A stretch of 64,000 nt of DNA from an uncultured Acidobacteriaceae bacterium (GTDB lineage Bacteria; Acidobacteriota; Terriglobia; Terriglobales; Acidobacteriaceae), in contig CAWGIB010000006.1 in NCBI GenBank assembly GCA_963822545.1, positions 565,428-629,427 of the forward strand, given 5' to 3'. Below the pieces are notes generated by a model. The model did not search any database. It had not been told where the DNA came from and saw only the letters and a program-made list of their open reading frames with translations. How positions within the stretch are numbered: the first letter of the stretch is position 1; each line of letters opens with the position of its first letter. The position numbers and the translations under genes were made by a program. Shown here piece after piece: positions 6,084-45,214 of the stretch.

Positions 6084-8093
6084 CTAAATTCTTTTGAATG
6101 CCCTCTGAATCTCCGTCATCGTGTAGCGCAAAACCACCGGCCGCCCATGCGGGCACGACATCGGATGCTGTGTCTTGGCGAGTTCCGCCAGCAGCCACTC
6201 CATCTTGTTTTGCTCGAGCGGCATGTTCACTTTGATCGCCGCGTGACATGCAATCGATGCCGCGATACGCGTGCGCACCGCTTCCAGATTAAGGGCCTGA
6301 TCTTCCCGCGTGAGCTGTTCCAGAACTTCATTCAACATGTGTTCGATCTGCCCGGCGTCCACGCCCGCCGGCGCAACCTTCACCGCAATGCTGCGCGATC
6401 CAAACGGCTCGGCCTCAAAACCATTGTGTGCCAACTCCGTCGCAGTCTCGCTAAAGACTGCCTGCTGCGCTGGGGTCAGTTCGATCACCAGCGGCATCAG
6501 CATCCTCTGGCTCTCTACTTGTTGAGCCGCGCGCTGTCGCAGTATCCGCTCAAACAGTACCCGCTCATGCGCCACATGCTGGTCGATAATCCAGAGACCG
6601 TCTTCATTCGTTGCCAGAATGAATGAATTCTTGATCTGTCCCAGAGCCTTTAGCGTACGCAGCGATTCGAGCGTCGGTGCCGCCTGCTCAGCCTGCTCAA
6701 TCGGTGGCGCGCACCCATGATCCGGGACGGCTGTCTCCGGCGCGCGCGCCAGCGACACCGCTGCATTCGCCTCGACCGCGATACTGCCCTCAAATTCGAG
6801 CCGCCCCGTAATCGGAGGAACCGTCGGCGCCTGCAACGCAAAATTTCCGCCTGGCTCGTAAACGCTCCGCCATGGAGCCTGCCCGCCAATACCGCGCCCA
6901 CCCGGCGAAAGTCCCGCCCCTGCCGTCGGCTGCGCATTGATCTCCGCCAGAAACTGCGGCACTGGACGAGCTTTCATCAGCGCATCGCGCACCGAGTCGC
7001 GCACAAAATCGTGCATCACCGTCTGCTGGCGAAAGCGCACCTCTGTCTTCGACGGATGCACGTTTACATCGACCTCCGCCGCCGGCATCTCAATAAACAG
7101 CAGCACCACTGGGTAAACCGTCGGTGGCAGAATGTTCCGGTAGGCCTCGACGATCGCATGCTGCACGAGCCGGTCCCGGATCAGCCGCCCGTTCACAAAA
7201 ATGAAAATCGAATTGCGGTTGAGCTTCTGGATCTCCGGCTTCGAAACAAACCCATGCAGCCGTATCTCCCCAAAATCCTGAAGGTCGTCTGGCACGAGCT
7301 CGTGTGGCGCGGGCATTCCTGCCCGCGGTCCCTCATCCCCGCCGCTAGGAACAACGGGGCTAGTCCGCCGCCAAGGCGGAGGCTGCGGCAACCCAATTCT
7401 TTCCAGCCTCTGCATCGCGGCCAGCGGAATCAGCTGATCCAATGTCTCTTTGCCAAAAACCTGGTAAACCCGTTCCCGGTGTCCAGCCACCGGAGGCGCC
7501 ACCAGAATTGCATTCGTCGCCGAGTGCAGTTCGAAATGCTTTTCCGGATGCGCGAGCGCATAGTGCGTCACCAGTGAAGCAATGTGCGACAACTCAGTGG
7601 ACTCCGCCTTCAGAAACTTCTTCCGCGCCGGAACATTAAAGAACAGATCTCGAATCGTGATCGAAGTTCCCAGCGGCAGCCCGGCTTCATCCACGCGCGC
7701 CATCTTGCCGCCATTGATCTCGATCACCGTGCCCGCCGCTTCCTCCTGCGCCCGCGTTTCAAGATGCAGCCGGGCCACCGATGCGATCGAAGGCAGCGCT
7801 TCCCCGCGAAATCCGAGCGTCGCAATACTGAGCAGGTCCTCGGTATCTTTGATCTTCGAAGTGGCATGCCGCTCAAAGGCCAGCATGGCGTCGTCGCGGA
7901 CCATGCCGCATCCGTCATCCGTAATCTGAATCAGCTTCTTCCCGCCCGCCTCAACCTGAATACGAATCCGGTTCGCCCCCGCGTCGAGTGCGTTTTCCAG
8001 CAACTCCTTCACCACCGACGCCGGACGCTCCACCACTTCGCCCGCAGCAATCTGGTTGGCAACGCGTTCCGGCAGAACGTGAATTTTTCCCAT
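6084..8093 (-). CDS. mutL: DNA mismatch repair protein MutL
   Basis: N-terminal GHKL ATPase motifs: IHVLPERVANQIAAGEVVERPASVVKELLENALDAGA, DDGCGM, TLGFRGEAL. C-terminal dimerisation region ends CPHGRPV. Confidence 0.95.
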   Translation of the reverse strand: MGKIHVLPERVANQIAAGEVVERPASVVKELLENALDAGANRIRIQVEAGGKKLIQITDDGCGMVRDDAMLAFERHATSKIKDTEDLLSIATLGFRGEALPSIASVARLHLETRAQEEAAGTVIEINGGKMARVDEAGLPLGTSITIRDLFFNVPARKKFLKAESTELSHIASLVTHYALAHPEKHFELHSATNAILVAPPVAGHRERVYQVFGKETLDQLIPLAAMQRLERIGLPQPPPWRRTSPVVPSGGDEGPRAGMPAPHELVPDDLQDFGEIRLHGFVSKPEIQKLNRNSIFIFVNGRLIRDRLVQHAIVEAYRNILPPTVYPVVLLFIEMPAAEVDVNVHPSKTEVRFRQQTVMHDFVRDSVRDALMKARPVPQFLAEINAQPTAGAGLSPGGRGIGGQAPWRSVYEPGGNFALQAPTVPPITGRLEFEGSIAVEANAAVSLARAPETAVPDHGCAPPIEQAEQAAPTLESLRTLKALGQIKNSFILATNEDGLWIIDQHVAHERVLFERILRQRAAQQVESQRMLMPLVIELTPAQQAVFSETATELAHNGFEAEPFGSRSIAVKVAPAGVDAGQIEHMLNEVLEQLTREDQALNLEAVRTRIAASIACHAAIKVNMPLEQNKMEWLLAELAKTQHPMSCPHGRPVVLRYTMTEIQRAFKRI

Positions 8094-12371: not shown

Positions 12372-13130
12372 TTACGCTGGCGTCAGCCCGTACTTTTCCT
12401 GTAGACGATGTTCCATCGTCCGGAACACCAGTCCATCCACCATGTAGCCCAGAATAATAATCAGGATCATCACTGCCAGCACCTGATTCATGTCGCTCAA
12501 ATCGCGCCCCATCATGAGCAACTGTCCAAGCCCAAGGCTCAGGAAAATCATCTCCGCCTGAATCAGCGAGCGCCATGCGAATGCCCATCCCTGCTTCATT
12601 CCGTTCACGATGAATGGCAGGCTCGCCGGCAGCAGTACCGACCAGAACAATCTGAAACCGCTCGCTCCCAGATTCCGTCCGGCCATCCCGTAAATCTTCG
12701 GCATCTGCTTGCGCCCGTCTTCCATGGCGATCGTCACCGAGAGCAGCGATCCCATCAAGACGACAAATAAAATTGCCTTCTCCGTCAGGCCGAACCAGAG
12801 CACTGCCAGCGGAATCCAGCAAATACTCGGCAGCGACTGCAGGCTCACCAGCAACCCGCCCAATGTCTCTTCCAGAAATTTGCTGCTCGACACACCCAGT
12901 CCCAAAATCATTCCTAGCACGACCGACAAGCTGTAGCCGATCAGCATGCGCTTCATGGTTACCGCAATCCCGATCCAGAAACTGTGGTCGGCGAAGCCAT
13001 CCCACAATGCGTGGCCTACGCCCCACGGTGGCGGGAAAAGATACGGGGGCCAAAGGTGCAATTTTGCGAGGAGTGTCCAGAGCCCAAGTAGCGCGGAATA
13101 GAAAATAACCTGCCTAGCGAGCTTTTTCAT
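12372..13130 (-). CDS. ABC transporter permease (nitrate/sulfonate/taurine NitT/TauT family)
   Basis: Six-TM BPD-type permease. Contains MAGRNLGASGFRLFWSVLLPASLPFIVNGMKQGWAFAWRSLIQAEM (EAA-loop region). Likely start is MKKLARQ at 13130. Confidence 0.85.
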   Translation of the reverse strand: MKKLARQVIFYSALLGLWTLLAKLHLWPPYLFPPPWGVGHALWDGFADHSFWIGIAVTMKRMLIGYSLSVVLGMILGLGVSSSKFLEETLGGLLVSLQSLPSICWIPLAVLWFGLTEKAILFVVLMGSLLSVTIAMEDGRKQMPKIYGMAGRNLGASGFRLFWSVLLPASLPFIVNGMKQGWAFAWRSLIQAEMIFLSLGLGQLLMMGRDLSDMNQVLAVMILIIILGYMVDGLVFRTMEHRLQEKYGLTPA

Positions 13131-14046
13131 CGGCGTACTCCACTTCCAGGCTCTTGTTGATCTCTTCCCGCAAACAATCCAGGACCTCTCGCGCTTTTCT
13201 CGATACATCCGGATGCTCCATGTGGCGCGGCCGCGGCAGGTTCACCGTAAATTCGTGCTTCACTCGTCCCGGACGAAACGTCATCAATGCCACGCGATCG
13301 CCTAACCGTGCCGCCTCCCGCACGTTGTGCGTTACGAAAATGATGGTGCAGCCAGTCTGCGCCCAGATGCGCTCCAGTTCATCATGCAGCAGATCGCGCG
13401 TCTGCGCGTCCAGCGCCGCAAACGGTTCATCCATGAGAAGCACATCGGGTTCGGTGGCAAGCGCTCGAGCCAGCGCTACCCTTTGCCTCATTCCACCTGA
13501 AAGTTGATGGATGTAGCTGTTCCGGAACTTTGATAATTGCACCAGGCGCAAGTAGTGCTGCACCTTCTCTTCGCGCTCGGCCTTCGGCACATTCTTCATC
13601 TTCATGCCGAACTCAACGTTGCCCCCTACCGTCAGCCACGGAAACAGCCCGAGTTCCTGAAAAATTAAGATGCGGTCGGTTCCCGGGCCTGCTACCGGTT
13701 TTCCATCGATCAGCACTCGTCCGGAAGTTTGCGGATGCAGCCCCGCGATCAGGTGCAACAGGGTCGACTTGCCACATCCTGACGGCCCAACAATGCAAAG
13801 AAACTCGCCCGGCTTTACCTCCAGGCTGATCTTATCGAGCGCCAACAGACGCTCACCCGAAGTCGTTTTGTAGCTCAGGGAAATTTCATCCAACGCGACT
13901 TTCGGAATAACAGATTGCTCGACCAAGGACGCCGGAAACGTCACGACTGATACGGGCGGTTTCCCATGAAAAACTTGTGATCGCCCAGTCGTCCCATGAA
14001 CTGGCGGAACTGCTGGTGAAAATGCGTTGCGCGGACTCGTACTCAT
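13114..14046 (-). CDS. ABC transporter ATP-binding protein (SsuB/TauB-like)
   Basis: Walker A GPSGCGKST, signature LSGGMRQRVALARAL, Walker B LLMDEPFAALD. The start overlaps the upstream stop as ATGA. Confidence 0.9.
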   Translation of the reverse strand: MSTSPRNAFSPAVPPVHGTTGRSQVFHGKPPVSVVTFPASLVEQSVIPKVALDEISLSYKTTSGERLLALDKISLEVKPGEFLCIVGPSGCGKSTLLHLIAGLHPQTSGRVLIDGKPVAGPGTDRILIFQELGLFPWLTVGGNVEFGMKMKNVPKAEREEKVQHYLRLVQLSKFRNSYIHQLSGGMRQRVALARALATEPDVLLMDEPFAALDAQTRDLLHDELERIWAQTGCTIIFVTHNVREAARLGDRVALMTFRPGRVKHEFTVNLPRPRHMEHPDVSRKAREVLDCLREEINKSLEVEYADEKAR

Positions 14047-15781: not shown

Positions 15782-16540
15782 CTACTGCAACCGCACAATG
15801 TTGACCGTAATATTGTCCGGTCCGCCACGCTTCCGGGCCAGCGCGATCAGGTCGCGGCCGGCACTTTCAGCACTATGCTTATCCACCGCAGTCAGTATCT
15901 CTTCGTCATGCACCAATCCCCACAATCCATCACTGCAGATGACCAGCACATCTTCCGCCCGCAGCGGCTCCGGATGCCCAGGAGAATCCATAATCAGCTC
16001 GGGATTCGTTCCCAGCGCTGCGGTAAGAATATTCCGCTGCGGATGTATCTCCGCCTCGGCACGGCTGATCATGCCGGCTTCCACCAGCCGTCCAACATAG
16101 GAGTGATCGCGCGTTACCTGGGAAATCTGGCCGTCCCGTATCAGGTAAAGCCGCGTGTCTCCCACGTGCACGAAATAAAGAGCGTCGTGGACAATCGCTG
16201 CCGCCGTACAAGTCGTTCCCATCCCGCGCAGCGCAGGATGCGCGAAGCCATAGTTCCGGATCTCGTCGTGCGCGGCCTGCAAACCCTCGATCAAGGCCTG
16301 TTGCGGATCCTCTCCCTGGAAGTTGCGGTAAGTGTCGACCAGCGTGTCGACCGCGATCCGGCTGGCTTCCTGACCGCCTTCGTAGCCTCCCATTCCGTCC
16401 GCGACCACGGCGAGGCGTCCCTTGCGCGCAAACTGCGAGTCCTCTTCGGGCTCCCAATAGCCAAAGAAATCTTCGTTATTTTTTCGCAGGCAGCCGATAT
16501 CGGATTGCGCCGATACCTCGATCCCGGCGCGAACTTTCAT
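15782..16540 (-). CDS. PP2C-family Ser/Thr protein phosphatase
   Basis: Motifs NEDFFG, AVVADGMGGYEGGQEAS, VHVGDTRLY, ICSDGLW, GGPDNITV. Confidence 0.9.
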   Translation of the reverse strand: MKVRAGIEVSAQSDIGCLRKNNEDFFGYWEPEEDSQFARKGRLAVVADGMGGYEGGQEASRIAVDTLVDTYRNFQGEDPQQALIEGLQAAHDEIRNYGFAHPALRGMGTTCTAAAIVHDALYFVHVGDTRLYLIRDGQISQVTRDHSYVGRLVEAGMISRAEAEIHPQRNILTAALGTNPELIMDSPGHPEPLRAEDVLVICSDGLWGLVHDEEILTAVDKHSAESAGRDLIALARKRGGPDNITVNIVRLQ

Positions 16541-20875: not shown

Positions 20876-21000
20876 CTACTCCGTGGCGCAGTGTTCGTCT
20901 TGAACCGGCGCGCAGTATAGAAAGACTCTCTTCTCTTGACGGAATGGCGGGTGGCCCAGCCTTGGGGAGGCTTTTGGTTTTCGCCTGCATCTCCCAGGCG

Positions 21001-21037
21001 AGGGTGCCCCATCCTTCGCGCACTTTGCGAAGGGTGG
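21001..21037 (-). repeat. GGGGCACC-hairpin family, copy 2 (inverted)
   Basis: GGGTGCCCCATCCTTCGCG-cactt-TGCGAAGGGTGGG. Confidence 0.7.
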
Positions 21038-21269
21038 GAACCACGGACGCATATACAGCGGGTTTCGTGCGGAAGGATAAAAGGTTGTATCGGCAGCATC
21101 GCCGCCCACCCCTTCGGCAAGCTCGGGGCAGGCTCTTGCAAATGGTGCAATGCAAAGATGGGCCACCCGCCGAAATAAGAAGTTAGAGTTTCGATGATTG
21201 TCATGCGGCGAGGGCCCACTGCTCGATCAAACGGAAAACTTTCGAAAGGAAGACTTAATTTTAAACCTT

Positions 21270-21304
21270 GGGTGCCCCATCTTTCGCGGTGTTCGAAAGG
21301 TGGG
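21270..21304 (-). repeat. GGGGCACC-hairpin family, copy 3 (inverted)
   Basis: GGGTGCCCCATCTTTCG-cggtgt-TCGAAAGGTGGG. Confidence 0.7.
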
Positions 21305-21361
21305 ATCTCCTCGAAGGGCAAACCTTTCCTCGTGGTTTTGAAAGCGGTGATCGTGGCTGAT

Positions 21362-21397
21362 CCCCGCATCTCGAAAAGCGCGAGATGTGGGGCACCC
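21362..21397 (+). repeat. GGGGCACC-hairpin family, copy 4
   Basis: CCCCGCATCTCG-aaaagcg-CGAGATGTGGGG followed by CACCC. Confidence 0.7.
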
Positions 21398-21504
21398 CAA
21401 GATAGAATCACCCACGAAATGGGGCACTGAAGTGGGCCACCCGCCGAAATAAGAAGGTGGAGTTTTAATTGATCGTCGGGCGCGAGGTCTGAAATTAAAG
21501 ACCT

Positions 21505-21569
21505 GGGACAGACGGGACGTTCGCCAATTTCTATTCGTCGACAAACTGGGGAACGTCCCGTCTGTCCCC
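21505..21569. repeat. long inverted-repeat element, copy 1 (perfect 18-bp arms)
   Basis: GGGACAGACGGGACGTTC (21505-21522), a 28-nt loop, then GAACGTCCCGTCTGTCCC(C) (21551-21569), followed by ATATTTCAGGTTTCCC. Confidence 0.8.
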
Positions 21570-21697: not shown

Positions 21698-22873
21698 TCA
21701 GCTGTAGAGTAACGACAGCATATTCGCCCGGTCCATCTTTAGCGTATCGACAGACATCTCGGTCGTTTTGTGGTGCTTGATTCGCACGGAGACTCTCGCT
21801 TCCGCCTTGCACTCAAGCATTTTCACCACTTGCTCGGTCCGTTGGTGTTCCGGTTCTGGCTCAGTAAGTAATCGGTTGACATTGGACAGATAGGGAACAT
21901 TTTGAAGGCGTGCGGTAAAAGCATTCTGCGAGGGTGTTTTTCCTCCCCATCCCGAACCAAACCCTCCCGACTGAAATAAGGACGCATAAGCATTCGGCTG
22001 CTGTGGCGGAGATGGAGTCCTGAGGAATTTAAACGTCAGCTGAAGATCGAGTTCGGCAAATTGCGCGTCGCCGGACACTTCGTACAACTTGCCTGTCTTT
22101 ACCTCAAACTCCTTGATCGAAAGCGCACTGATCATATCCCTGGTTGCTCGACTCAGTTCTCGCGCCGCTCGATCAATCAGTTCGCGTTCGATGCTCTGTA
22201 TTTCAAAATGCGTTTGAGCCCACTTGTCTGTAACCTCGATAGGAGTCGGTGCGTGAGCTTTGAGAAAATCCTGAATGGACCGGTAGATGTGCAGCTTTCC
22301 GTTCTTGGTTTTCAAATCGCGATCGATGTCTGGGTGAATTGCGTCATCCGCCCAAAAGCCGCCGTCGCCAGAAACGAATACCACCTCGGTTTCCGCCTTA
22401 TCAGAATACGCAAGTGTCCACAACCAGAGGATTACATCGCGAAGTTCTTCTCCATTGTCGTTCGCAGGCCTCGTCCGGTGGATACCTCGCATGAAGGCTT
22501 CTTGAAGAAAATCTCCTGTTATTTCATCGAAGTAAATCGGAGCGACCCCGTCGGCTGGTTTCATTAGCTTCCTTCTGAGTTGTATCATCGCGGACTTGCC
22601 ATCAGGTTTTTGGAAGTGTAGAACGTCGCTCTCCAGATCGAGGTGGTGATATTTCCGACAGGCATCCTCGAAGGCCTTGGCACCTGTCTTCAGACGGCGA
22701 CCATAGTCGATCACCACCTCCTCGCGTACGACACGCGGCAGCACCAATCGCGATTCAGTCCGGCGCATGTACTCAAATAGGCTTTGGAAAGCCACGCCGT
22801 TCATCCTGTAATCAGCAGCGTAGATGTTAGAGTCGAGGATAATGTGCATGGTGAACGAGGGGCTTTTAACCAC
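21698..22873 (-). CDS. PIN-like domain protein B (DUF4935/PIN_12-like by motif) with unknown ~190-aa C-terminal domain
   Basis: The acidic/PIN pattern is ILDSNIY..., LPRVVREEV, GEELRDVILWLWTL, VVFVSGDGGFW. The C-terminal half has no recognisable motif. GTG start at 22873 (alternative ATG at 22849). AT-rich relative to neighbours. Confidence 0.7.
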   Translation of the reverse strand: MVKSPSFTMHIILDSNIYAADYRMNGVAFQSLFEYMRRTESRLVLPRVVREEVVIDYGRRLKTGAKAFEDACRKYHHLDLESDVLHFQKPDGKSAMIQLRRKLMKPADGVAPIYFDEITGDFLQEAFMRGIHRTRPANDNGEELRDVILWLWTLAYSDKAETEVVFVSGDGGFWADDAIHPDIDRDLKTKNGKLHIYRSIQDFLKAHAPTPIEVTDKWAQTHFEIQSIERELIDRAARELSRATRDMISALSIKEFEVKTGKLYEVSGDAQFAELDLQLTFKFLRTPSPPQQPNAYASLFQSGGFGSGWGGKTPSQNAFTARLQNVPYLSNVNRLLTEPEPEHQRTEQVVKMLECKAEARVSVRIKHHKTTEMSVDTLKMDRANMLSLLYS

Positions 22874-22911
22874 GCGACTTGGCGCTCATTCTTCTTGCTA
22901 ACTGCGGAGCT

Positions 22912-24039
22912 TTACGTATCCTTGTCCTTTTCGTCTTGGTCTCTTTCATCCCCATCTTTTTTCTCTTCCTTGGATGTTGGACGTGGCGAAGCCTGAGCGC
23001 TAGCGAGAGCCGCAAGAGTGTTCAATTTTGACTCGTCCAAGTTAATACTGCGGAGATAGTTGTTGATTCTGGTGTTGAGATCTGCCTGGTCAAGATTGAT
23101 GCTGCGGACATAGTTGCTAATTTTGTCAAGACTTGATTGGTCGACATTGATACCGCCGAGATAGCTATTGATTCTGTTGCTGAGAGTTGAAGGGTCCCAA
23201 TCGACGCTCTGGAGATATTTATCATATATGTCGAGATTGGAAGGGAACTTGGCCGCAGCGAGGCTTGACAACGCAATATTTGAAGTAGATACGAGATCTT
23301 TTTCCGCTTCTTCTTCCTTTTTTGACACCGGGACATCAAATGACTTGAGAGCCTCCGACAAACGTGTGTATAAGGTCAACTTCCGCGACTGACTTACTCG
23401 GTCGCTGAACTCGTGGCGCAGCTCATCGTTGATATAGGACCTTTTACCTATCGTGACACCATAGTCTGAATCTCGTGAAACAATCACGAGCCCAGCCTTC
23501 TTCTTCGCCGCACAGCGAATCATCCATTCCCAATTGAACGCATCTCCGTACGAGGTGTCACCCGCTTTTCTCGGAGGGCAGCCATGCATAAATCTTCTCA
23601 TCGCGGCGCGTCTCACGATGCGTCTGGTAATGTCATTTCGAGTTAGCGCCAGATCGTCAATTTTCTGAAAAATGCGCTGACAGACCTGATATACCGGATC
23701 GTTTTGTGCCGGATTATCCAATGCTTTGATGAGGCGTTCGCGCAGCTTCTTTACTCGCTTCTCAGCCTCCTCAAGGTGGCGGTCAATGATCTGCGTAGCC
23801 TTCACGTTCGAGAAGATCCCCGGACGGGATAGTTGAGATGGCTCCTTCAACGCACTCATACCATCGACGATCGCGGCCTGGCGATTCTTCTTGAATTCAC
23901 TTTCGAGTTGAAACGTTACGATGATGCGATCGGCGATCTGTTCAGTACGTTCGAGCAGCTGCAGGCCCGTCTCGTTCTTGGCTCTATAAAAATCGAGCCA
24001 GATATTGGTATCGATAAATAGCAGATTAGGAAGCGCCAT
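22912..24039 (-). CDS. PIN-like domain protein A with C-terminal 17-18-aa tandem repeats and acidic tail
   Basis: LLFIDTNIWLDFYR, VTFQLESEFKKNR, PPRKAGDTSYGDAFNWEWMIRCAAKKKAGLVIVSRDSDYG (the 'GD...GD..W...VS.D.D' pattern I associate with PIN_8-type PIN-like domains). Followed by the repeats (R/K)I(N/S).Y(L/V)..IN(L/V)D...L(N/D) and the tail KEEKKDGDERDQDEKDKDT. Confidence 0.7.
   Translation of the reverse strand: MALPNLLFIDTNIWLDFYRAKNETGLQLLERTEQIADRIIVTFQLESEFKKNRQAAIVDGMSALKEPSQLSRPGIFSNVKATQIIDRHLEEAEKRVKKLRERLIKALDNPAQNDPVYQVCQRIFQKIDDLALTRNDITRRIVRRAAMRRFMHGCPPRKAGDTSYGDAFNWEWMIRCAAKKKAGLVIVSRDSDYGVTIGKRSYINDELRHEFSDRVSQSRKLTLYTRLSEALKSFDVPVSKKEEEAEKDLVSTSNIALSSLAAAKFPSNLDIYDKYLQSVDWDPSTLSNRINSYLGGINVDQSSLDKISNYVRSINLDQADLNTRINNYLRSINLDESKLNTLAALASAQASPRPTSKEEKKDGDERDQDEKDKDT
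23020..23240 (-). repeat. in-frame tandem coding repeat (about 51-54 nt unit, 3 clear plus 1 degenerate copies)
   Basis: Peptides DIYDKYLQSVDWDPSTLS / NRINSYLGGINVDQSSLD / KISNYVRSINLDQADLN / TRINNYLRSINLDESKLN. Confidence 0.7.
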
Positions 24040-24337
24040 ACTAAGTACCTACGGCGCACATTATACAGTCCGACAAACTCTTGCTTTGATTTTTCTCGGA
24101 TGCTTTTCGTTGGACGATGTCAGGTCGAAAGCAATCCTCTACGGTGCACCGACGATAGTCATCTACCAGTGGCCTACGACGAGGAAAGTAGTCTGCTCGT
24201 ATGAACAAATCGGCGAAGAAAGGTTAGTTTCACCTATCCGCGATGATCGACCTTGACACTTTCGATCCAAGAAAGTATTTCCCAGCCAAGATGGACGGGC
24301 ACTGTGCCCGATTGCGGTTGCTCTCCATCAAATCACA

Positions 24338-24381
24338 GGAAATGTGGGGACACGCGGAACTGCCCCCAATTCTTCTGTCCC
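24338..24381. repeat. long inverted-repeat element, copy 2 (degenerate)
   Basis: GGAAATGTGGGGACACGCGGAACTGCCCCCAATTCTTCTGTCCCC. Collinear with GAAATGTGGGGACAGACGGGACG...CCATCCCCAATTTTTC at 29221-29300. Confidence 0.55.
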
Positions 24382-24413: not shown

Positions 24414-24734
24414 CTATTCATCCAATGAGAATCCGCCCGGCAAAGCTGCCTCAAGATTGATTTGTTCTCCGGTGATGGGGTGTTGGAAATTCAGAAATTG
24501 GGCGTGCAGGAAATATCCTCCATCGCCCGGGAGGCCGGGGAGATTTTCAAGGGGCTGGCCGGATAAAACCGTACAGAGGATCGCCTACCAGCGGATGGCC
24601 GATGGATGCCAGATGGATTCTGATTTGATGAGGGCGTCCCGAATCCAGGCTTACCTCACATGTTGTGGTGCTGCGGTGCGTGAGATCACTTTTGCCAATG
24701 ACTTTGACGGTTTGCCACTCGGGTTGGCGGCCCA
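24414..24734 (-). pseudogene. duplicated 3' fragment of the RluA-family pseudouridine synthase gene (copy of 29342-29755)
   Basis: Near-identical nucleotide stretch. Encodes WAANPSGKPSKSLAKVISR..STTTCEVSLDSGRPHQIRIHLASIGHPLVGDPLYG..YFLHAQFLNFQHPITGEQINLEAALPGGFSLDE* across at least 2 frames. There is no 5' part. Confidence 0.85.
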
Positions 24735-24803
24735 TAAAAGACCGGGGACAGTCCCGGTTTTCCCCCAGCTTTGCAAAACCACAAGGTGTCGGCAGTGTGA
24801 AGG

Positions 24804-24838
24804 CCCACTTCTCGAAAAGCGCGAGAAGTGGGGCACCC
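24804..24838 (+). repeat. GGGGCACC-hairpin family, copy 5
   Basis: CCCACTTCTCG-aaaagcg-CGAGAAGTGGG followed by GCACCC. Confidence 0.7.
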
Positions 24839-29183: not shown

Positions 29184-29293
29184 TGAAATGTGGTGAAATG
29201 TGGGGACATGAAATGTGGGTGAAATGTGGGGACAGACGGGACGTTCACTAGTTTCCATTTGTTGAAAGACTCGGAAACGTTCCGTCCATCCCC
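29184..29293. repeat. 4x GAAATGTGG tandem motif fused to long inverted-repeat element, copy 3
   Basis: GAAATGTGG at 29184, 29194, 29210 and 29221. Arms GGGGACAGACGGGACGTTC (29228-29246) and AACGTTCCGTCCATCCCC (about 29276-29293), followed by AATTTTTCAGGTTTTC. Confidence 0.75.
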
Positions 29294-44845: not shown

Positions 44846-45214
44846 GGGGGCGTCCCGGATTCGACGGAGATGCTTGCGGCCAGGAGGCATGCCGTGGTGC
44901 ACACACCCGTTAATCGCGTGCAAAATGATAATTGCCAATCAACAGATGGCATACGCAGCCTAATTAATTAGGCTACCGCTCTCCGCAGCTTCGCCCTTGG
45001 GCTGTGAAAGAGCGTCACACAGAGGGCTGCTCTTCCCGTCTACGTCTGGGGCGGGAGGCTAAGATTACAGGCTAGCGTCTTCGGTTTCTTGTTCGTTCTG
45101 AGCCGGAGCCGCGAACGTCCTGGGGTAATGCCCAGGGCATGAACGGAATAAGCATGTAGTTCTCCTGTCCAGTAACATTTTCGGACGCGGGTTCAACTCC
45201 CGCCGCCTCCACCA
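44846..45214 (+). ncRNA. ssrA: tmRNA (SsrA)
   Basis: 5' GGGGGCGTCCCGGATTCGACGG. 3' GGACGCGGGTTCAACTCCCGCCGCCTCCACCA. The acceptor stem GGGGGCG/CGCCTCC contains a G3-U pair. The tag frame GCC AAT CAA CAG ATG GCA TAC GCA GCC TAA (44934-44963) encodes ANQQMAYAA*. Confidence 0.93.

Follow-up and report, generated by a model that had tools for sequence, protein, structure and literature searches.

Two PIN-domain genes at the locus

The DNA analyzed here, referred to as the window, is a stretch of 64,000 nucleotides (nt) from an uncultured Acidobacteriaceae bacterium (GenBank assembly GCA_963822545.1, contig CAWGIB010000006.1, positions 565,428 to 629,427). Two adjacent genes in this window, A and B, are the subject of this report, and both are predicted to encode nucleases of the PIN superfamily. 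Gene A (22912 to 24039; 375 amino acids [aa], ATG start) and gene B (21698 to 22873; 391 aa as annotated from a GTG start) lie on the minus strand. An earlier note on this DNA, made from its letters alone, had listed both open reading frames (ORFs) at these positions as co-directional and had quoted PIN-like motifs from each; the ORFs, their shared strand, and the motifs are all present as described. The note went on to propose that A and B, which it considered unrelated to each other, form an undescribed two-gene module with a defense-like function.

The annotated GTG is likely not the true start of gene B. Members of the B family begin with MHIIL in 34 of 38 aligned sequences. In B this motif is encoded from the ATG at 22849, the start also chosen in a gene call made independently on a short contig from the Logan collection (L129). 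Because the family members and the Logan gene call favor this start, the spacer between the genes is more likely to measure 62 nt (22850 to 22911, minus strand) than the 38 nt originally counted, a value that holds only if B begins at the GTG.

Both genes differ from the window in composition, as the description of an AT-rich islet had implied. The G+C content of A is 0.484 (z = -2.9), the lowest in the window, and that of B is 0.514 (z = -1.8), compared with a window mean of 0.560; together they form the most AT-rich part of the window.

Both proteins belong to the PIN_12 family

Both proteins matched Pfam PIN_12 (PF16289, formerly DUF4935) over the entire profile (positions 1 to 172 of 172), A with 76 bits at residues 7 to 193 and B with 59.5 bits at residues 11 to 173; the gathering score that serves as the cut-off for this family is 32 bits. 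PIN_8 was also matched by A and B above Pfam cut-offs (62.7 bits for A). These matches bear out the suggestion that both proteins have a PIN-like fold of the DUF4935/PIN_12 or PIN_8 kind. The residues expected at a PIN active site are strongly conserved among homologs, again as anticipated: D10, N12, E46, D161, D166, D190, and D192 of A were invariant in 35 of 35 sequences, and E52, E142, E143, D146, and D170 of B were invariant in 38 of 38, with D14 present in 36 of the 38. These findings support the identification of both genes as PIN-superfamily nucleases of the DUF4935/PIN_12 type, with the activity being predicted.

Other searches added little. A scan of A and B against NCBIfam returned nothing meaningful, nor did a sequence search of the Protein Data Bank (PDB) with the profiles of the two families, and when the AlphaFold2 (AF2) models of A and B were compared with the PDB by Foldseek, no match reached E ≤ 0.001. 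The full-length search with A was probably spoiled by its floppy tail (see below). For the N-terminal domain of B, the best structural neighbors were VapC toxins, although these matches were weak (5x3t_B, probability 0.97, TM 0.63), and none reached E ≤ 0.001.

The view that A and B are unrelated did not hold up. In addition to sharing a Pfam family, the two proteins aligned collinearly by BLASTP over residues 7 to 233 (19% identity, E = 0.002), and the profiles of the two families matched each other weakly (hhalign, E = 0.003). A and B are deeply diverged members of one family.

Co-occurrence of A and B and their gene neighborhoods

Beyond the window, we examined 80 loci of the B family, from metagenomes, and 37 loci of the A family, from species-representative genomes and other assemblies. 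The ORFs of each locus were called and then searched with the profiles of both families. A and B were found together in the window only; 0 of the 117 other loci held both genes. Dereplication at 90% identity left 33 B lineages with at least 1.3 kb of upstream DNA and 27 A lineages with at least 1.3 kb of downstream DNA, and the partner gene was absent from every one of these distinct lineages with sufficient flanking sequence. The A-B pair was also present on the 2.5-kb Logan contig mentioned above, which probably derives from the same organism, so it does not count as an independent occurrence.

The nearest relatives of each gene have other neighbors. One A homolog, its core 91% identical, has a DUF6680 gene after it and lies beside hrcA-grpE-dnaJ; another, whose core is 94% identical, precedes an unrelated gene for a secreted-looking protein. 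The closest informative relative of B (79% identical, with 5.9 kb of upstream DNA) lacks an A gene. DNA similarity between the window and all related loci ends at the gene borders, and the flanks are not syntenic even where the cores are 80 to 94% identical. An all-versus-all BLAST of the neighboring ORFs revealed no family common to unrelated loci, and recurrent sets of neighbors proved to be near-identical copies of one locus. When the neighboring ORFs were assigned to Pfam, 126 from A-family loci fell into 114 families and 147 from B-family loci fell into 72, none of which occurred more than two to three times. Most of these neighbors of homologs are housekeeping genes, for example those for GrpE, DnaB, QueA, and PolA. 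Two distant B relatives (L033 and L036) have queA and polA as their neighbors; a multi-gene context considered for them was rejected, as the gene merely sits between the two.

Across lineages, no conserved ORF of 35 to 170 aa was found within 600 nt on either side of the genes of the A or the B family. The earlier remark that there is no small antitoxin-like partner and no VapBC layout was therefore correct. A side observation concerns three distant B relatives (approximately 35 to 38% identity), each of which has an ORF of about 75 aa directly upstream on the same strand (L060, 1132 to 1353; L067, 1003 to 1248; L080, 143 to 361). In that sub-clade alone, this ORF might represent a partner or antitoxin; nothing like it was found in the window.

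Because the partner gene is absent from all 117 other loci, an outcome that the earlier note had itself named as grounds for giving up its proposal, the claim of an undescribed two-gene module fails. A and B are very probably two independent, solitary PIN_12 genes. The adjacency of two similar-looking nuclease genes is in itself no evidence of a system, and in this case the pairing is unique to one genome.

Gene A: a conserved core with a hypervariable tail

The core of A (residues 1 to 250; 23290 to 24039, minus strand) consists of the PIN domain, a long helical insert, and a short conserved alpha/beta extension. It was modeled by AF2 with a pLDDT of approximately 80 to 95. The remainder of the protein (residues 251 to 375; 22915 to 23289, minus strand) is a hypervariable tail for which pLDDT ranged from 36 to 65 and was mostly below 60. 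The tail contains three repeats of 17 to 18 aa, beginning at residues 290, 307, and 325 and having the consensus I-N/S-N/S-Y-L/V-x-x-I-N-L/V-D, and it ends in a K/E/D-rich segment; a Tandem Repeats Finder search of the tail DNA reported no tandem repeat. In the closest homologs, the core is 86 to 94% identical to that of A and the tail is 24 to 35% identical, with insertions and deletions that correspond to the 17- to 18-aa repeat units. Across the wider family the tail cannot be aligned, and the alignment collapses past residue 250.

The earlier note had credited each protein with about 170 to 190 aa of C-terminal sequence that could not be assigned to any family. For A this description does not apply: the protein consists of a PIN_12 core, a conserved extension of about 55 aa that takes the module to about residue 250, and the low-confidence hypervariable tail, with no novel domain of 170 to 190 aa. 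The hypervariable repeat tail on an otherwise highly conserved core is the most unusual feature of the locus.

The A family is large, and its distribution is patchy. The A protein itself is recorded, in identical form, on a 918-kb contig. Homologs of A formed at least 823 clusters, and core identity was 55 to 65% between members from Acidobacteriota, Beta-, Gamma-, and Alphaproteobacteria, and Planctomycetota. Sequence patterns of the A family picked out only 35 loci among 185,579 species-representative genomes.

Gene B: a PIN domain with a subfamily-specific C-terminal region

The AF2 model of B (mean pLDDT, 85) shows a PIN core, a long helical insert, further helices, and two long beta-hairpins. 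The PIN domain with its helical insert occupies approximately residues 9 to 190 (22304 to 22849, minus strand) and has a pLDDT above 90. The C-terminal alpha/beta region (residues 191 to 391; 21701 to 22303, minus strand) includes the beta-hairpins, at residues 247 to 286 and 351 to 380, separated by a disordered, variable linker at approximately residues 290 to 350.

No match to the C-terminal region was found in the PDB, either by sequence (profile search) or by fold (Foldseek). When its 202 residues were searched against 1.84 billion representative proteins, only 23 were retrieved. In these proteins the region is likewise C-terminal; the exceptions are short fragments and a low-complexity match in one protein of 1,302 aa. 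The C-terminus of B is an elaboration specific to its subfamily and not a new promiscuous domain. B homologs formed 90 clusters, nearly all from soil metagenomes and metagenome-assembled genomes (MAGs) of Terriglobales, and most of them begin with MHIIL.

Links of A relatives to mobile elements

One homolog of A is carried by a phage. ORF18 of the P2-like Ralstonia phage RSA1 (NC_009382) shares 42% identity with residues 6 to 250 of the A core. It lies on the opposite strand (L125, 5971 to 6912) between virion-morphogenesis ORF17 and baseplate spike ORF19, among late genes, which is the layout of an insert expressed in lysogeny. In P2, this is the position of the non-essential orf30. A also matched PHROG 9788, a family annotated as function unknown (E = 5e-15). 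Seven entries in IMG/VR contain an A homolog, and all represent one predicted-prophage locus in related isolates, where the homolog (L119, 4468 to 5941) has an integrase-like ORF and an uncharacterized ORF of 114 aa as neighbors.

As a separate observation, genes annotated as DUF4935/PIN-domain and approximately 25% identical to A are present on about 20 Escherichia coli plasmids of approximately 92 to 100 kb (for example, CP057937.1, 55803 to 56444) and in Escherichia phage JL22 (3813 to 4454 of a 99.6-kb record). These genes constitute another PIN_12 subfamily borne on mobile elements.

Flanking sequences, repeats, and scans for defense genes

A TATAAT hexamer on the minus strand (plus-strand ATTATA at 24060 to 24065) lies 21 to 26 nt upstream of the A start. 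The box reported by the earlier note is therefore real, although a promoter consensus scan identified no full -35/-10 site there. Within the spacer between A and B, the same kind of scan found no terminator-like or promoter-like site; match counts in the promoter and terminator scans were no better than in shuffled controls. The hexamer is spanned by a 55-aa ORF with a TTG start (24041 to 24208, minus strand) that ends 1 nt before the A start codon. This ORF is not conserved, because similarity to close A relatives ends 10 to 40 nt upstream of the A start, and it is probably not a gene.

On one side, the pair is neighbored by ArsR, AHSA1, and DUF1801 genes, and on the other by a C-terminal fragment of RluA followed by F420_oxidored, SDR, AraC, and TetR genes. 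No integrase, transposase, or recognizable defense gene adjoins the pair, which likewise has no helicase, methylase, or small partner gene beside it. The earlier statement that there is no ATPase, helicase, or methylase nearby is correct for adjoining genes, but an ATPase does occur about 8 kb away, the nearest being an ABC-transporter subunit at 13114 to 14046. The RluA fragment is a 62-aa ORF (24547 to 24735, minus strand; GRPHQIRIHLASIGHPLVGDPLYG) that matches PseudoU_synth_2 at positions 126 to 152 of 152 (E = 8e-5) and represents the C-terminal remnant of an RluA/RluD-type pseudouridine synthase. Its presence in the repeat-rich spacer upstream of A suggests a past rearrangement at this spot. 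A pooled Pfam search of ORFs from 8 to 40 kb of the window also returned one strong PseudoU_synth_2 match (E = 5e-24), consistent with an intact synthase there.

Short palindromic repeats abound in the two intergenic stretches of approximately 0.8 to 0.9 kb on either side of the pair. A palindrome resembling repetitive extragenic palindromic (REP) elements, with 26-nt arms that are 92% complementary, lies about 130 nt downstream of B (inverted repeat I4, 21505 to 21568). Its predicted folding energy is -46.8 kcal/mol (z = -8.1), and it could act as a terminator or stabilizer hairpin. By alignment and folding, a second full copy lies at 29229 to 29290, and upstream of A alignment reveals a degenerate half-copy (approximately 24340 to 24375) that folds weakly (z = -1.8). 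The intergenic DNA downstream of B also holds further short repeats, palindromic and direct, clustered at 20990 to 21460; they are of the GGGTGCCCCA...TGGGGCACCC type and TGGGCCACCCGCCGAAATAAGAAG, and a matching copy lies upstream of A at 24804 to 24838. With the palindromes at 21000 to 21032, 21270 to 21304, 21363 to 21397, and this copy at 24804 to 24838, at least two families of REP-like elements occur in the intergenic DNA. Repeats of the GGGGCACCC type recur several times in a locus from a Terriglobia MAG (L086) and are also found in loci L006 and L008.

The earlier note had placed the genes in a slot bounded on both sides by the same inverted repeat. The full copy downstream of B is there, but the element upstream of A is only the degenerate half-copy, and the next full copy is the distant one at 29229. 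With related copies in other Terriglobia loci, the repeats are lineage-wide, dispersed REP-like elements and not the boundaries of a mobile element, and the notion of a repeat-bounded slot was abandoned.

Scans of the region with PADLOC, which the earlier note had recommended, revealed no known defense gene near the pair. Among ORFs within about 10 kb that were scanned individually, the matches were to generic ABC ATPases and, weakly, to an uncharacterized candidate, PDC-M21C (15782 to 16540). The six immediate neighbors were scanned with PADLOC only as part of a pooled set and have clear, unrelated Pfam identities. In that pooled set of 35 ORFs at 8000 to 40000 there was one match to SduA (Shedu, DUF4263; E = 3.3e-8) and one to PD-T4-6 (E = 5e-6); these are located only to the set, as the 20 ORFs that were re-scanned individually do not carry them. 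An Rfam scan of the locus found no RNA. Elsewhere in the window, Rfam identified a tmRNA gene on the plus strand (44846 to 45214; 192.7 bits) with the tag peptide ANQQMAYAA.

Interpretation and alternative explanations

The interpretation that we favor, with moderate confidence, is that A and B are two independent PIN_12 nucleases, each plausibly a single-gene defense. Proteins of the PIN_12 (DUF4935) family would be VapC-like, metal-dependent PIN-domain endonucleases that lack an antitoxin partner. Given the profile matches and the invariance of the acidic residues, each of the two proteins is best explained as a PIN endonuclease that would act without the other, possibly as a homo-oligomer. 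Mg2+ or Mn2+ would be bound by four conserved acidic residues for the cleavage of nucleic acid; the usual substrate of PIN domains is RNA. The C-terminal part of each protein, the beta-rich domain in B and the hypervariable tail in A, may stand in for an antitoxin by restraining or directing the nuclease. As distant paralogs, the genes would have arrived separately as accessory, horizontally moved genes, and their adjacency would be happenstance in a variable, repeat-rich intergenic stretch of this genome.

The most likely role of such proteins would be to block phages or other mobile elements, each gene forming a barrier by itself, as has been reported for Brc24 (Cosus). Brc24 is a single PIN_12 integron cassette that is reported to confer complete resistance to phage T7, and in its T12A, D14A, and D96A variants T7 protection fell by more than 10^5-fold, with approximately 100-fold remaining (bioRxiv 10.1101/2024.07.02.601719). 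A defense role for A and B is a reasonable guess that draws on this preprint and on the phage-borne relative of A, and we put it forward tentatively, as a serious possibility that stops short of being probable.

Several observations weigh against the favored interpretation. A and B matched no model in PADLOC-DB 2.0 at E ≤ 1 (the database dates from 2023 and is older than Cosus), and within about 10 kb of the pair PADLOC indicated no clear defense gene. The kinship with Brc24 is at the level of the Pfam family only: Brc24, whose sequence we rebuilt with frameshifts from the OCR-read Table S3 of the preprint so that all comparisons with it are approximate, matched the full PIN_12 profile with 95.8 bits, but its hhalign E-values were 0.035 against the B profile and 0.16 against the A profile, and neither tblastn nor BLAST matched it significantly to A or B. 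Homolog neighborhoods are mostly housekeeping, and the few matches to Mrr, ResIII, TIR, and transposase genes come with no baseline for enrichment. For the B family, no match was found in phage, plasmid, or IMG/VR records. The co-occurrence of A and B was assessed with profiles specific to each family, and many of the metagenome contigs were short. Finally, A and B may be co-transcribed in this genome, given the 38- to 62-nt gap, the common strand, and the absence of a predicted terminator.

A more far-reaching version of the same idea, which we consider somewhat unlikely, is that the A family is a widespread and unrecognized single-gene anti-phage or superinfection-exclusion nuclease and that B represents a second, Acidobacteria-restricted PIN_12 defense subfamily with a beta-rich regulatory domain. 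If A were such a nuclease, its hypervariable tail would be a fast-evolving specificity or sensing element, and if both genes were defensive, the window would hold a minimal two-gene "defense islet" made of independent systems. Should either gene prove to be a stand-alone anti-phage nuclease, the Cosus precedent would extend to two very different subfamilies in soil Acidobacteriota, a phylum in which, to our knowledge, almost no immunity has been studied experimentally. It would also pose the question of how a PIN nuclease without an antitoxin is kept harmless.

Alternatively, A and B could be cellular nucleases of RNA processing or decay, with housekeeping or regulatory functions and a neighborhood that carries no meaning. 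The largely housekeeping surroundings of homologs, the very strong conservation of the A core (up to 65% identity across phyla), and the lack of PADLOC matches would all fit. We nevertheless regard this as unlikely, given the patchy distribution of both families (the 35 A-family loci among the species-representative genomes and the 90 B-family clusters), the loss of synteny even between close relatives, the atypical G+C content, the presence of an A homolog in a temperate phage, and the hypervariability of the A tail.

Each gene might instead encode a toxin belonging to a toxin-antitoxin or addiction-type module, with an antitoxin that has gone unrecognized and could be an RNA, a very small ORF, or the C-terminus of the protein itself; the role would then be stabilization of mobile DNA or stress-induced growth arrest and not defense. 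This fits the PIN fold, which is closest to that of VapC toxins, the placement of DUF4935 in the VapC group by Matelska et al. (PMC5499597), and the relatives found on a phage and beside an integrase-like ORF, and the 55-aa ORF abutting the A start might seem to offer a candidate antitoxin. That ORF is not conserved, however, neither family has a conserved small ORF on either side, Rfam finds no RNA in the locus, and both proteins are two to three times the size of VapC, so that we judge this explanation to be quite improbable.

A cooperative cassette for defense or abortive infection, for example a sensor and an effector or a hetero-oligomer, would accord with the shared strand, the 38- to 62-nt spacing without a terminator-like site, the AT-richness of both genes relative to the window, and a nuclease family with one reported defense member, but it is very unlikely in view of the lack of co-occurrence in the 117 other loci (including the 33 B and 27 A distinct lineages), the different neighbors of the closest homologs, the description of DUF4935 genes as monocistronic (PMC5499597), and the fact that Cosus works as a single gene (bioRxiv 10.1101/2024.07.02.601719).

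Comparison with known systems

VapC toxins share with A and B the PIN fold and the acidic quartet, and VapC structures are the best, if weak, structural neighbors of the B N-terminal domain. Unlike VapC, A and B have no adjacent antitoxin gene, are two to three times larger, and carry a helical insert and C-terminal additions.

The phage-borne relative, RSA1 ORF18, and PHROG 9788 are linked to A by the 42% identity of ORF18 to the A core and by the PHROG profile match. ORF18 differs in being carried by a phage among virion genes, and B has no phage relatives according to searches of phage, plasmid, and IMG/VR records.

Like A and B, Cosus belongs to PIN_12, is of similar length, has the same order of motifs (IDxN, E, a D-containing helix, and SxDxGW), and is a single gene without a partner; a hexameric state has been predicted for it. 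The first-motif aspartate that is critical for its defense, D14, corresponds to D10 of A and D14 of B. Unlike Cosus, the A-B pair has no integron context among its annotated neighbors, attC sites not having been searched for, and phage resistance involving the PIN acidic residues is known for Brc24 only.

The closest correspondence is with the DUF4935 family as surveyed by Matelska et al. in 2017 (PMC5499597), who placed it in the VapC group and described proteins with an N-terminal PIN domain and an unassigned alpha/beta C-terminus, "usually expressed as mono-cistrons"; the C-terminal region, of about 180 aa, was less conserved and had no known fold. A and B agree with this description in length (approximately 350 to 390 aa), in their N-terminal PIN domain, whose strand 2 is followed by a long helical insert, in their conserved acidic residues, and in their solitary, monocistron-like contexts, which have no conserved neighbor or small partner ORF. 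B also has a confidently modeled alpha/beta C-terminal region that is found in its own subfamily only and has no PDB match, and we equate this region with the "less conserved" DUF4935 C-terminus of Matelska et al. (PMC5499597). A departs from the pattern in having an extension of about 55 aa (to about residue 250) and a repeat tail instead of the alpha/beta C-terminus. Both subfamilies occur mainly in Acidobacteriota and soil metagenomes, phyla that the 2017 survey does not list. By 2017 the family had been described together with its architecture and solitary habit, and the defense role of one member was reported in 2024-25; what is new here is that A and B are divergent members from an under-studied phylum.

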